Of a stretch of 64,000 nt of DNA, positions 15,781 through 57,746 are shown piece by piece. Source of the DNA: an uncultured virus (IMG/VR IMGVR_UViG_2706794523_000001) (taxonomy: Duplodnaviria; Heunggongvirae; Uroviricota; Caudoviricetes; Schitoviridae); the IMG/VR virus record IMGVR_UViG_2706794523_000001, positions 1 through 64,000 of that record; one strand, given 5' to 3'. Each line of letters begins with the position of its first letter. Positions within the stretch are counted from its first letter, which is position 1. The position numbers were made by a program, and so were the translations under genes. The notes beneath the pieces are model-generated. The model ran no database searches, was not told where the DNA came from, and saw nothing but the letters and a program-made list of their open reading frames with translations.

Positions 15781-18008
15781 TCTCGATCTATCAACCGTCT
15801 CCCACCATCCGGCGCTGGAGGAAATTGTCGACATCCTTTGCTCGAAGACCCAGAACACCGATCGGGGCTTCTTCCGCACTGAGGTCGCATACTTCTTCGC
15901 CAAGATGGCAGCGACCATGCGAGCCACGATCCAGACCAAGGACCGCGGCGAAATGCCGGTGAACATCTATGCCCTGGCTCTGGCGACGTCCGGCTACGGC
16001 AAGGGTCACTCGGTCAACATCATGGAGGAGGAATTCCTCGCCGGGTTCAAGCAGCGCTTCATGCAGGACACCTTCCCGGTGATCGCCGAGCAAGGCCTGT
16101 GGGACATCGCCAATGGCAACGCTGCCCGCAACGGCACCGACCAGCAGGAGGAGTTCGACAAGGTCTCCAAGGAGTTCCGCAAATACGGCGCCTATCCGTT
16201 TACCTTCGACTCCGGCACGGCACCGGCGGTCAAGCAGCTGCGCCAGAAACTGCTCATGGCCTTGTGCGGCAGCGTCAACCTGCAGATCGACGAGATCGGA
16301 TCCAATCTGATCAAGGAGACTGAGCTGCTGACCCTGTTCCTGGAGCTTTACGACCAGGGCCTGGTCAAGCAGAAGCTGATCAAGAACACCACCGACCAGG
16401 AGCGGGCCGAAGAGCGGGAAGGCAAGACGCCGACCAACATGCTGCTGTTCGGCACACCGGCCAAGCTGTTCGATGGCTCGGCCACCGAGGATGAGTTCTA
16501 CTCATTTCTCGAGACCGGTTATGCGCGGCGCTGCATCTTTGGCTACGGCGTCCACAACAACCGCTCGAACCAGAACCAGACGGCTGAGGAGATCTTCGTC
16601 TCCCTCACCCAGCCGAAGAATGAGGTCCTGGTCGAAAAGTGGCAGCGCCATTTCTACACGCTGGCGGATCCTGCGATCCACGGCTGGAAGATGGAAGTCC
16701 CGGACTCTGTCTCGATCGCTCTGCTGGCCTATCGCCTGGAGTGCGAGAAGGCAGCCGACAGGATGTCCGACCACGAGGAGATCAAGAAGGCCGAGCTGAA
16801 CCACCGCTACTCCAAGGCCATCAAGCTNAGCCGACAGGATGTCCGACCACGAGGAGATCAAGAAGGCCGAGCTGAACCACCGCTACTCCAAGGCCATCAA
16901 GCTGGCCGGCGCCTATGCCTTCATCGACGGATCCACCGAGGTCCTGATGGAGCACCTGAACGCCGCCATCAAGCTGGTCGAGGAGTCGGGTGCGGCATTC
17001 CAGACGATCCTCAGCCGCGAGAAGACCTACGTGAAGCTGGCGAAGTACATCTCCAGCATCGGCACGGAAGTGACCCACGCCGATCTGCTGGAGGCCCTGC
17101 CCTTCTACAAGTCCAGCAAGCAGGCCCGTGACGAGATGATGACCCTGGCGACAGCCTGGGGCTACAAGAAGCACATCATCATCAAGAAGGAGTTTGCCGA
17201 CGGCATCGAGCTCTTCAAGGGCGAGACGCTGCAGGAGACCGATATCGAAAAGATCATCGTCTCCTACTCGAACCATTGGGCATACAGCTACCTGCCCGAG
17301 GAAGTCCCGTTCGACAAACTCTTCATGCTGACCCAGATGCCGGAATACCACTGGGCAAATCACCACTTCAAGGGCGGTCACCGCGCCGAGGAGAACGTGC
17401 TCGCCGGCTTCAACATGATCGCCATCGACGTGGACGGCGGAACGACCCTGCAGGCGGCTCACGAGCTGCTGAAGGATTACAAGTTCCTGACCTACACGAC
17501 GAAGCGTCACACCGAGGAAGAGAACCGGTTCCGGCTCATCATGCCGACCAACTACCGGCTCGACCTCGATAGCGACGAATACAAGGAGTTCATGAACAAC
17601 GTCATGTCCTGGCTGCCGTTCGCGACCGACGAGTCGGCCAACCAGCGATCCAAGAAGTGGGAAAGCTTCGCAGACGGCGCCTACCACTACAACCTGGAGG
17701 GCGAGATCCTCGACGTTCTGCCGTTCATTCCGAAGACCAGCCGGAACGAGGCCTACAAGCAGAGCAACAAGGACCTTGGCTCGCTCGACAACCTGGAGCG
17801 CTGGTTCGCTACCAGGATCGCCAGCGGCAACCGCAACAACCAGATGATCAAGTACGCACTTTGCTTGGTCGATGCCGGTTGGGATCTGCCGACGGTGCGG
17901 GACGGGGTCAAGTCGTTCAACAAGAAGCTGCGCGACAGCCTGACCGAAGCGGAGCTCGACAGCACCATCATGGTGACCGTCGCCAAGCGATACCAGCAGA
18001 CGGCCTGA
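15770..18008 (+). CDS. DNA primase (N4 gp43-like); apparent frameshift caused by a scaffold artefact at N16828
   Basis: TTG start after AGAAGG; SGYGKG, QIDEIG, AIDVDG, C-terminal GNRNNQM. Removing the 75-bp duplicate plus the N gives a 2163-nt in-frame ORF. Confidence 0.88.
16753..16903. repeat. 75-bp exact tandem duplication around a single N (likely assembly artefact)
   Basis: 16753-16827 equals 16829-16903. Confidence 0.9.
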
Positions 18009-19619: not shown

Positions 19620-20177
19620 ATGCTCATCCCCGTCCTCGGCATGGACCCATCCCTCACCAATTGGGGCCTTGCCGAGGCCAACCTCTGCTTGAAGTCGGGC
19701 GTGCTTTCGACCCCGCATCTCATTCTGGTTCAGCCCGATGAGCTGCAGGGCAAGCAGGTGCGCGTGAATTCAAACGACTTGCACCGCTCTGAGCAGCTTG
19801 CTCAGGCGGTGTTCGCCGCCGCACGTCGAGCGAAGGTCATCTTCGTCGAGGTGCCGGTTGGTTCCCAATCCGCCAGGGCGATGGCCAGCTACGGCATCTG
19901 TGTCGGGATCCTGGGAGCCTTGCGCTCCGAAGGAATGCAGATTATCGAGGTCACGGCCGGGGAAACAAAGAAAATATTTACTGGGGACAGGAATGCCCCC
20001 AAGCGGAAAATGATAGATAAGGCTGCCGAGCTTTATCCGGAATCTAATTTCCCGCCTTTGCATAAGGGGAAACTTCCGGATAAAACCGAACACCTGGCCG
20101 ACGCCATTGCTACCATCCACTCGGGCGTGCGAACGCCCATGTTCCAGAATTTACTCCGACTCTTCCAAGAGGTTTAA
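19620..20177 (+). CDS. RuvC-like Holliday junction resolvase (N4 gp46-like)
   Basis: LGMDPSLTNWG, FVEVP, EHLADAIA. Confidence 0.88.
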   Translation: MLIPVLGMDPSLTNWGLAEANLCLKSGVLSTPHLILVQPDELQGKQVRVNSNDLHRSEQLAQAVFAAARRAKVIFVEVPVGSQSARAMASYGICVGILGALRSEGMQIIEVTAGETKKIFTGDRNAPKRKMIDKAAELYPESNFPPLHKGKLPDKTEHLADAIATIHSGVRTPMFQNLLRLFQEV

Positions 20178-20180
20178 ACC

Positions 20181-20747
20181 ATGCAGATAATCGTGACCCA
20201 CAATGAGATCGAGGAGGCCGTCAAGCAGACGGTGCTCGCCCAGATCTCTCTCAGGGAGGATCAGAACGTTGCCATTCGGTTCGAGCAGACCGAGAGCGAC
20301 GACTTGATCGCCATCATCGACATCACCAAGGCTGGCAGCGAGCCGCCGAAGGGCGGTCTGAAGACCGACGCCCCGAAGACCATCGCACCCCGCGGCAAGA
20401 AGGCTGCAGCCGCTGCTGCAACCGTGAAGGCCGACATCAAGGACGACGAGATCGCGGCCAAGGAAGAGGCCGAAGCCAAGTCCGATGGCGCTCAGGCGCC
20501 TTGGGAAGAGCCGGCAGCGACCGAGGCCGCTGAGACCACGGAACAGGCCCAGCCCGCTGCTGAACCTGCTGCCGAGGCTCCTGTGACCCAGCCGACCGAG
20601 ACCAAGCCGCTGGCGGCCCTTCTCGCGAACACGACCAAGATCTTCCCCGATGCCACTTCGTCGGCAGCTCCGGAAACCCCGAAGCCCGATGTCACGGCCG
20701 CCGCGGCGAAGTCCCTGTTCGCGAACCTGACCAAGCCGACCCAGTAA
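20181..20747 (+). CDS. conserved N4-like protein with an Ala/Glu/Pro-rich tail
   Basis: MQIIVTHNEIEEAV start, C-terminal KSLF; synteny. Confidence 0.8.
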   Translation: MQIIVTHNEIEEAVKQTVLAQISLREDQNVAIRFEQTESDDLIAIIDITKAGSEPPKGGLKTDAPKTIAPRGKKAAAAAATVKADIKDDEIAAKEEAEAKSDGAQAPWEEPAATEAAETTEQAQPAAEPAAEAPVTQPTETKPLAALLANTTKIFPDATSSAAPETPKPDVTAAAAKSLFANLTKPTQ

Positions 20748-55825: not shown

Positions 55826-56077
55826 TTAATCCTGGTGTTTGGTTACGACGACTCTGTGAGCATCGGTGTTGACGGTGCGGCCATCGCCGCGCTGGAGGCG
55901 TGTCTCGTTGTCCTCTCGGGTGGCCCGGAACTGCACCTGGCCATTCTTCCCGACGCGGAACTGCATGACGTGGACAAGGTCGCAGTCGCAGCAGCCCATG
56001 AAGTAGCGATCGGCTCGCGGCTGGACCCAACGGGACCAGCCGCTCTTGTTGGCCTTCTCCTTGCGGAAGCGGATCAC
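55826..56077 (-). CDS. small protein with CCDCxLVH (possible Zn-binding)
   Basis: GTG start overlapping the upstream stop (GTGA). Confidence 0.6.
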   Translation of the reverse strand: MIRFRKEKANKSGWSRWVQPRADRYFMGCCDCDLVHVMQFRVGKNGQVQFRATREDNETRLQRGDGRTVNTDAHRVVVTKHQD

Positions 56078-56175
56078 GACAGCCACCAAGCCATACCAGC
56101 GGCGCCGGCAATGAAGCCGACGCCCGCATAGACCCACTTCGTCGCCCAGGGGATGATCAGATCTTCGAGTCCCAT
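56074..56175 (-). CDS. 33-aa membrane peptide
   Basis: MGLEDLIIPWATKWVYAGVGFIAGAAGMAWWLS; coupled at both ends. Confidence 0.55.
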   Translation of the reverse strand: MGLEDLIIPWATKWVYAGVGFIAGAAGMAWWLS

Positions 56176-57495
56176 CAGTCCCTCGCCAGGTTCTGGAATT
56201 GCTGGGCCTGCTGCTGCGCAGCCCGCTGGCCGGACACCAGCTCAAGCGCTTCCTGGCGAGCCAGGCGCCGGGACAGATGATGCTTGTGGAGCTCCATCGC
56301 ATTGACCTGCTGGTACATATCCCGGCGGTCGACAGACGGCAGACGGTTGAAGGCGTCGGTGCGGAGGAAGGCTTCGAGCTTGTCGTAGCGCTCGGTCAGC
56401 TGCTGGAGTTNCGGCAGACGGTTGAAGGCGTCGGTGCGGAGGAAGGCTTCGAGCTTGTCGTAGCGCTCGGTCAGCTGCTGGAGTTCGAGCTTGGCCCGGA
56501 TCTGCCAGGTCTCGTCGCTGGTGTGGGTCTCGTCCTCACCGCCCTTGTTCATGAAGCGGGTCATGTCGTTCATAAGGGAGAGGAGGTTCTCGTCGAGATG
56601 ATCATCTTCGGGCAGGAGCTCCCGATAACAGCCGATTGGCTGGTCTTTGTATCGGAGCTTCATACGGAGGGATTTGCCTTCGGGACCGTCACGGAGAACG
56701 ATCTCGCCGAGCCGAGTCTCCTNATCGGAGCTTCATACGGAGGGATTTGCCTTCGGGACCGTCACGGAGAACGATCTCGCCGAGCCGAGTCTCCTTGCTC
56801 GCCTCACCGGTCCCTTCCGCGCTTGCGGCTGCCGGCTGCGCCTCTGCCGCGCGCACGGGCCGGTAGGCTCGCTCGAACACTTCCTTGGGGGACCAGGAGA
56901 TGTAGCCCTTGAAACCGGGGACATGGGGAGGGTTCTCGACGCGGTCGGTGTATTCGACAATGTAGCCTGCATCGTTGCCGTCTTCATTGGACGGCAAGGT
57001 CCATCCGCGCAGCTTGTTGTATTGCTGCCGGCTCATAGGCGTGGCGTTGATCACCTTGGTTCCGATGTAGGTCTCGAAGCCTTCCTGCGGTTCTACCAGG
57101 GCGCCACCGATCAGGCGTTGGTCGCGGGCCATCCTCGACTTGAGCTCGTAGCCCATCAGCGCCCACATCTTGGCGATGGCGTCCGACTTGGCCAGGCGCT
57201 TGCCGATCTCGGGGTTGAAGTTCTTCGGGTCGGCGCACGCGCTCTGACCCAGGACGGTGAAGCCGTTCCACAGGCGCAGCACACAGATAGTCAGGAGGCC
57301 GAGGTCCGGATCCAGTGGCAAAGGGTAAGCCGGCACGGAGCCCGTCTCGACGGCAGCATCGAGAAAGCCTGCTCGGGCGCCTTGTTCCGCACTGAAGAAG
57401 TGCTCGGAGATAATGGCTGCTTCGACGTCGGCGAGGGTAACCCGTTCGCCGCGGGCGCCGTCGATCAGCTCCTGCTCGGTGACATTCGTATTCAT
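56175..57495 (-). CDS. multi-domain protein (Gp49/66-like + YIGTK..SWSPK domain + crAss001_48-like helical domain), split by two scaffold artefacts
   Basis: ATG 57495 after AAGGA; removing 73 nt and 75 nt of duplication plus N leaves a 1173-nt continuous ORF. Confidence 0.7.
56337..56485. repeat. 74-bp duplication around N56411 (likely artefact)
   Basis: 56337-56410 equals 56412-56485. Confidence 0.9.
56651..56795. repeat. 72-bp duplication around N56723 (likely artefact)
   Basis: 56651-56722 equals 56724-56795. Confidence 0.9.
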
Positions 57496-57530: not shown

Positions 57531-57746
57531 TCAGCCGGTAATGCCGTCGGGAGCGGGCGTGATGATGTGGTAGTCGACGCTCTTCTCGCGGATCAGGATG
57601 TAGCCCTCGTCGCACTGCAGGCGCACGTAGGTGCCCTTGGCATCCCAGCTTGTGATGTTGCGCAGGTTCAGGTGGTTGCCTGACTTGAATACGACCTTGC
57701 GCTTCAGTTCGAGGACGGGAACAGCTGCCTTCAGTTTATCGCTCAT
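57531..57746 (-). CDS. small hypothetical protein
   Basis: MSDKLKAAVP..., AAGGA RBS. Confidence 0.7.
   Translation of the reverse strand: MSDKLKAAVPVLELKRKVVFKSGNHLNLRNITSWDAKGTYVRLQCDEGYILIREKSVDYHIITPAPDGITG

Follow-up and report, generated by a model that had tools for sequence, protein, structure and literature searches.

Acb4 and Sequestin, two families of phage-encoded sponges for immune signals, are the closest described relatives of the protein reported here. The family PF13876 was assigned to Acb4 by Chang et al., and 8 of 8 diverse Acb4 homologues tested bound 3'3'-cGAMP (bioRxiv 10.1101/2024.12.30.630793). PF21825 corresponds to Sequestin, an anti-Thoeris sponge that was found through its fusion to known sponges in a search of Pfam families only (Tal et al., bioRxiv 10.1101/2025.07.12.664507). 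In SequestinA and SequestinB a glutamate, a glutamine and the last arginine were essential, while 3 of 13 tested Sequestins had no effect on type I Thoeris (bioRxiv 10.1101/2025.07.12.664507). The same preprint reports Acb4-Tad2, Tad2-Sequestin and Sequestin-Acb4 fusions. An Acb4-Sequestin fusion, gp59 of Pseudomonas phage vB_PaeP_C2-10_Ab09, is a tetramer that binds gcADPR tightly, 3'3'-cGAMP weakly and also 2'3'-cAA (bioRxiv 10.64898/2026.06.04.730250). It is a strong inhibitor of type I Thoeris and a partial one of type II-A CBASS, and it triggers Panoptes, a decoy-signal defence that is set off by sponges (bioRxiv 10.64898/2026.06.04.730250). According to the same source, N4-like phages have a hotspot between the primase and virion RNA polymerase (vRNAP) genes, where Ab09 encodes Bes1 (RuvC-like) and Bes2. 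That preprint also describes RyR Tad, gp68 of Pectobacterium phage vB_PatP_CB1, whose N-terminal domain has a fold of unknown function and often occurs as a single open reading frame (ORF). In the crystal structure its first strand is swapped and the domain helps to build the dimer; by itself (gp68_N) it showed no apparent effect on type I Thoeris, the one system reported for it there (bioRxiv 10.64898/2026.06.04.730250).

The window, a stretch of 64,000 nucleotides from an uncultured virus (IMG/VR record IMGVR_UViG_2706794523_000001), contains a gene in which these two families meet in one chain (Table 1). The original prediction had joined two deposited ORFs into one multivalent anti-defence protein with a first domain of the N4 Gp49/Sf6 gp66 type and a crAss001_48-like last domain. 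Both domain assignments were borne out: the first domain belongs to the Acb4 family by its match to PF13876 and the assignment of Chang et al., and the last matches PF21825, the anti-Thoeris family named Sequestin by Tal et al. The protein is best understood as a multivalent anti-defence factor. Like Ab09 gp59, the protein comes from an N4-like phage and has Acb4 followed by Sequestin. Whereas the two domains are adjacent in gp59 (147 aa), a third domain, here called YIGTK, a linker and an insert lie between them in the present protein. The genes also differ in position: gp59 lies in the primase-vRNAP hotspot, while the fusion gene and its homologue in Rhizobium phage RHph_X3_15 are both found ahead of the terminase block.

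Eighty-eight homologues of 215–685 aa were classified with domain models built from the same proteins, and the Acb4 and Sequestin calls matched precomputed Pfam labels. The order Acb4-YIGTK-Sequestin was found in 51 of the 88, all three domains in another order in 4 and Acb4-YIGTK in 19. Because Acb4-Sequestin fusions have been published and tested and the three-domain layout is common, the core of the protein is, in our view, a variation on dual CBASS/Thoeris sponges that are already known.

Table 1. Features of the fusion gene and its assembly artefacts (positions in the window).
Feature	Positions	Strand	Basis or remark
Whole gene, Acb4/YIGTK/variable insert/Sequestin	56175..57495	-	ORF once two artefacts are skipped; 390 aa
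Acb4-family domain (PF13876), aa 19-121	57133..57441	-	Pfam E 6.5e-23
YIGTK domain (PHROG 872), aa ~141-213, ~73 aa	56857..57075	-	PHROG E 1.4e-26
Ala-rich flexible linker, aa 214-235	56791..56856	-	pLDDT <50 at 219-238 in homologue model
Variable insert X, aa 236-300	56523..56790	-	Spans 56651-56723 artefact
Sequestin-family domain (PF21825), aa ~303-363	56259..56516	-	Pfam; spans 56337-56411 artefact
Gln/Ala-rich helical tail, aa 364-390	56178..56258	-	Continuous helix in homologue model
Assembly artefact, 74-nt duplicate + N, in frame	56337..56411		Absent from 73,497-nt contig
Assembly artefact, 72-nt duplicate + N, frame-shifting	56651..56723		Absent from 73,497-nt contig

The YIGTK domain had no Pfam match (E ≤ 1) and no NCBIfam match in the six proteins searched. 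Neither a name for it nor an account of the three-domain chain was found in the literature, with subscription papers and some supplements outside the coverage; besides the preprints cited here, the available parts of PMC13712596, PMC13243611, PMC13728456, bioRxiv 2023.05.01.538930 and bioRxiv 2023.11.15.567273 were covered. In its available text, the Sequestin preprint (bioRxiv 10.1101/2025.07.12.664507) describes two-domain fusions and does not name the YIGTK domain. The SWSPK motif of YIGTK occurs 198 times in the homologue table of that preprint, and no motif match was seen in its 126-row screen table. Since the published fusion screen relied on Pfam, which lacks a YIGTK model, an anti-immunity role of the domain would have been missed there. 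With a profile of 68 sequences, the family comprised 4,446 clusters (50% identity) at E ≤ 0.001 and 2,320 at 1e-10. All 68 sequences agreed at six alignment columns (K, G, Y, W, S and F).

The YIGTK domain was predicted with high confidence (AF2 pLDDT 90.9). No solved fold matched it in a profile search (best E 0.92), with Foldseek (none at E ≤ 0.001) or among 48,161 chains compared by VIA-align (best Z 3.5, with none reaching 5). The fold search returned matches among predicted viral proteins only, and the failure to match solved folds does not make the YIGTK fold new. Signals of a Tudor/chromo-like barrel were at noise level (Pfam Tudor_5 in 16 of the 68 members, best E 4e-4; Z 2.3–3.5), and a likeness to the PGDYG family, seen only at E 1.3–2.1 in the viral fold search, was not accepted. 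A divergent Tad2 was likewise rejected on sequence grounds: PF11195 gave no match at E ≤ 1, and the profile comparison with one Tad2 domain had a probability of 0.13%. Judged by its sequence, YIGTK accompanies Tad2 and is not itself a Tad2. In Foldseek, SPO1 Tad2 came up for the YIGTK model only within noise (E 4.5, TM 0.31).

A relative was found in the N-terminal domain of RyR Tad. Alignment of the YIGTK domain with CB1 gp68 aa 3–78 gave 96.9% in hhalign (E 1.9e-10, 27% identity), and the score of 43.5 bits compared with at most 10.0 in 2,000 shuffles. These profile comparisons confirmed homology between the YIGTK domain and the N-terminal domain of RyR Tad (CB1 gp68 aa 1–86). The two have in common the fusion to a sponge; the RyR Tad domain differs in being a distant member that is joined to a RyR-repeat sponge.

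The partners of YIGTK were surveyed among its best 150 carriers, in a census that was seeded from a sponge-fused protein and favours sponge partners and close relatives. A Pfam sponge domain was present in 95 of the carriers, YceI in one and no such partner in 54. The sponge partners overlapped and comprised Tad2 (45), Sequestin (43) and Acb4 (29), which bears out the earlier statement of frequent fusion between the middle domain and DUF2829/Tad2. Five of the 54 carriers without a Pfam sponge shared a Tad1-like C-terminal half, and two of these five, when searched, matched Tad1 in the PDB (E 7.9e-16 and 6.1e-11). Another of the 54 was weakly Acb2-like (PF24729, E 0.0036; PDB 'p26', which we take to be Acb2, E 0.02), and several showed a faint Tad2 or Sequestin signal. 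Two rows of the Lockin table in bioRxiv 10.1101/2025.07.12.664507 bear the motif of the domain, as judged by eye. Sequence comparison thus places YIGTK in fusions with at least five unrelated sponge families (Tad2, Sequestin, Acb4, Tad1 and RyR Tad); Lockin and an Acb2-like protein are probably further partners. The domain stood at the N-terminus, in the middle or at the C-terminus of partners with different symmetry, and it also occurred alone. Further sponge chains were P0090 (Acb4 with a RyR domain), P0044 (Acb4-YIGTK-Tad2) and P0167 (a tandem pair of YIGTK domains). Among the Tad1 structures matched by the Tad1-like half of P0261 stood a phage protein of 230 aa, gp184 (PDB 8y6v_I; E 2e-13), which is presumably associated with the capsid of a jumbo phage.

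The genomic setting of YIGTK was examined at 83 distinct viral-contig loci (111 minus 28 with duplicate domain sequences). At 67 of them, YIGTK was fused to Acb4, Sequestin or Tad2. The 16 unfused copies had either a tail no longer than 35 aa (10) or an unassigned C-terminal part (6), and none had a sponge beside it within up to 2.5 kb on each side, as searched with home-made models of Acb4, Sequestin, Tad2 and Tad1. Hadary et al. include a YIGTK-Tad2 fusion as a 'known homolog' in their Tad2 table (bioRxiv 10.1101/2025.08.24.671296), so that earlier tests of Tad2 may have contained the YIGTK domain as well.

A function of its own is favoured for YIGTK because its partner sponges work without it and because it exists alone, while the inactivity of gp68_N and the bare neighbourhoods of the stand-alone copies call for caution. 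In our model, YIGTK would most likely be an anti-defence module itself, and a sponge for some further signal is its most plausible form. As a specific claim, a sponge for a signal other than the gcADPR of type I Thoeris is tentative and falls somewhat short of an even chance. The proposal that YIGTK is an unrecognised and widespread anti-immunity module, either a new sponge family or a universal companion that shields sponges from decoy-signal defences, comes close to an even chance. Another anti-defence role, such as a shield from decoy systems, seems improbable, and the remaining share goes to roles other than sponge, scaffold or anti-defence helper. The claim that the uncharacterised domains are candidate new inhibitors stood in part: YIGTK is a fair inhibitor candidate. 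Its novelty was overstated: Acb4-Sequestin fusions have been published and one of them tested, a homologue of YIGTK was tested against type I Thoeris and was inactive, and the 'unknown segment' proved to be a lineage-specific insert.

The alternative that survives best is that YIGTK has no ligand and is a strand-swapped dimerisation or stabilising scaffold, which raises the valency or stability of the fused sponge. We consider it unlikely, though it accounts for several observations: the homologous domain of RyR Tad swaps its first strand and adds to the dimer, that homologue alone was inactive against type I Thoeris, and a single-chain model without a match among solved folds is what would be expected for half of a swapped dimer. 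The partners, however, oligomerise and work without YIGTK, as seen for gp68_C alone, gp59 and stand-alone Acb4, Tad2 and Sequestin, and the invariance of six columns also argues against a mere scaffold. We give a distinctly lower probability to YIGTK as a helper of sponges that is not a sponge, for example a binder of defence proteins or a shield against Panoptes. Such a helper could accompany sponges whatever their ligand or symmetry, as YIGTK does, and since gp59 triggers Panoptes, a protective companion would be favoured. The Tudor/chromo-like barrel signals would fit a peptide- or protein-binding surface but do not rise above noise, and the stand-alone copies, which are not beside known sponges, also speak against a helper.

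The match of the N-terminal domain to PF13876 (81.5 bits; curated cut-off 27) covered profile positions 1–81 of 82. Acb4 of phage SPO1 (9E4W) was its sole sequence match in the PDB (E 0.0027). The same structure led the Foldseek search with the AF2 model of a full-length homologue (L001; pLDDT 86), with probability 1.00, TM by target up to 0.70 and a best E of 0.0097, and the Acb4 domain of this model had the SPO1 Acb4 fold, a three-stranded sheet with flanking helices. Equivalents of the SPO1 ligand-pocket residues F48, F62, N63 and I66 were retained. The present domain differs from SPO1 Acb4 in being fused and in lacking equivalents of the ligand-contacting E49, Y57, T70 and K81, and likewise of K36, the last by extrapolation beyond the aligned stretch. 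Ab09 gp59, with 50% identity over 56 aa of the Acb4 core, is also without equivalents of K36, E49, Y57 and T70; it has an equivalent of K81, where the present domain has alanine. As gp59 binds without four of them, the SPO1 contact residues do not define the Acb4 family. An Acb4 domain that does not bind CBASS dinucleotides would explain the loss of the SPO1 phosphate- and guanine-contacting side chains, including the K81 equivalent that gp59 keeps, and cGAMP binding is weak even in gp59. We nevertheless hold this to be improbable, given that all eight of the diverse homologues tested bound 3'3'-cGAMP, that purifying selection acts on the domain (dN/dS about 0.3) and that the substitutions are the rule across the clade and no private loss.

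PF21825 was recognised on both deposited halves of the gene (E 4e-06 and 4.3e-11; 27.1 and 43 bits) and on the intact homologue L001 (E 7.4e-12; 45.4 bits), in each case above the cut-off of 24.8 bits. R309, E313, Q347 and R361 aligned gap-free, with identical spacing, to R7, E11, Q45 and R59 of SequestinB. These pocket residues were near-invariant among the domain-bearing members of a 77-row alignment (R 55, E 58, Q 55 and R 55). A search of PDB sequences with the Sequestin half returned noise only. The domain thus resembles Sequestin in its Pfam family, its helical hairpin and its four pocket residues, and it differs in being the C-terminal module of a larger protein, followed by a helical tail. 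This tail was 93% identical in two homologues (L001 and L002) and little conserved elsewhere.

With Acb4-family and Sequestin-family domains in one 390-aa protein, the fusion is likely to act as a dual sponge for CBASS cyclic dinucleotides and the 1''-3' gcADPR of type I Thoeris. By analogy with gp59 and SPO1 Acb4, the Acb4 domains would assemble into a tetramer with dinucleotide pockets, in which binding is probably weak, as in gp59. The Sequestin helices would form antiparallel dimers with gcADPR pockets, as in SequestinA/B, and the YIGTK domains may pair by strand swapping like their homologue in RyR Tad. The assembled chain would hold CBASS dinucleotides and gcADPR below the thresholds of the effectors.

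Between YIGTK and Sequestin, the Ala-rich linker was 41–91% identical in eight long homologues. The insert that follows (insert X) was predicted to consist of three strands and one helix, at low confidence (pLDDT 51–74 in the homologue model). Its identity was 85% in L001 and 49% in L002, with dN/dS of 0.12 and 0.78 (few sites), respectively; six other long homologues carried different inserts with 3–14% identity. Close relatives other than L001 and L002 thus had an unrelated insert after the same Ala-rich linker in place of X, or none, and no homologue of the insert was found among shorter proteins or in Atlas, both searches being of limited sensitivity. A conserved fourth domain is not supported, given this replacement in relatives. 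Insert X is, by these comparisons, an exchangeable, lineage-specific passenger in a variable slot and not a family. At least three unrelated inserts were observed after the Ala-rich linker in this slot (P0003, P0006, P0008, P0009, P0010 and P0013). The insert of P0006 and P0008, which had no Pfam match, presumably resembles a helical motif like that of the ribosomal L7/L12 C-terminus.

Among the 52 ORFs scanned in the window were the N4-like (Schitoviridae) genes for virion RNA polymerase, N4-type primase, SSB, portal and terminase; the polymerase ORF of 3,496 aa matched phrog_2206 at 2,367 bits. The closest terminases were those of Rhizobium phages of Sinorhizobium (74.6%), and three close homologues of the fusion protein were labelled Mesorhizobium, so that a rhizobial host is likely. 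The IMG/VR class of the record is provirus, and close homologues lay on contigs of 108–164 kb labelled Mesorhizobium, and this hints at N4-like phages that integrate; the 52 ORFs scanned included no integrase. The interval between primase and vRNAP, which in Ab09 is the site of Bes1 and Bes2, contained a RuvC-like gene (phrog_159) and a gene of phrog_7641 (19620-20747, plus strand). The fusion gene heads a minus-strand block before the terminase. With this position, which is outside the primase-vRNAP hotspot, it may be expressed late; a scan for promoters and terminators gave matches at shuffle level. Two conserved downstream genes were common to all nine of the closest loci examined (L001–L009) and RHph_X3_15. 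Two small ORFs flank the fusion gene on the minus strand, at 55826-56104 (92 aa, with a Cys-Cys-x-Cys...His motif) and 57531-57746 (71 aa, missing from one contig of public run X4). Neither had a Pfam or PHROG match or a counterpart in the nine loci, and they are candidates for recently gained accessory or anti-defence genes.

In the deposited sequence, the frame is lost after residue 257 of the protein, and an extra piece of 73 nt is the cause. Single Ns at 56411 and 56723 are each flanked by exact head-to-tail copies (74 nt and 72 nt, respectively). When one copy and the N were dropped at each break, a stop-free ORF of 390 codons was obtained on the minus strand (57495 to 56175), with an AAGGA motif upstream. 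A contig of 73,497 nt from public runs X1 and X2 (depth 44) omitted exactly 75 and 73 nt and showed no other letters, hence no variants. Both runs belong to a single sample, from which the record itself may have come, and the contig is therefore not independent evidence. Runs X3 and X4 yielded relatives only. Independent IMG/VR contigs encoded the unbroken full-length protein at 83% (L001), 73% (L002) and 54% (L003) identity, and dN/dS over the whole gene was 0.28 against L001. The joining of the two ORFs into one protein was thus upheld by the X1/X2 contig, the intact relatives and the stop-free frame.

The N-flanked duplications are scaffolding artefacts. The window has three Ns and the whole record of 73,302 nt has four, all of them with flanking copies of 72–75 nt; the other two, at 16828 of the window and 64663 of the record, are single-N artefacts with 75-nt copies. 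The N at 16828 splits the DNA primase, which has 402 open codons as deposited and 738 with one copy skipped. Exact tandem copies of 40–119 nt without an N were absent from the record. It was consequently incorrect that both assembly breaks of the sequence fall in the fusion gene, and the suggestion that they reflect variation in the population is unsupported, all four breaks being generic scaffold artefacts of the same kind and the contig being without variants. A minor allele may persist, since contigs drop rare variants, but nothing points to one. Real duplications, with split or frameshifted alleles of the fusion gene in the population, are very improbable: two of the four breaks are somewhat clustered, 312 nt apart within this gene, but the same copies flank a single N at every site including the primase, no such duplicate lacks an N, the public-run contig is unbroken and the relatives are intact.

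The fusion gene illustrates how scaffold artefacts conceal anti-defence fusions in viral databases. Neither its Acb4 part nor its Sequestin part is out of the ordinary, and fusion of the two has already been characterised, so that the interest rests on the middle domain. YIGTK is small, is confidently predicted to fold, occurs alone and is suited to existing defence panels. Activity there would bring in a large family of sponges or other anti-defence proteins and might reveal a signal or a layer of defence that is missing from these panels, whereas a negative outcome would define an oligomerisation module that phage sponges share. If YIGTK is indeed an anti-immunity module, the fusion would be a chain of sponges for three targets, and the exchangeable slot between YIGTK and Sequestin would be a fourth place, in which phages try new modules.
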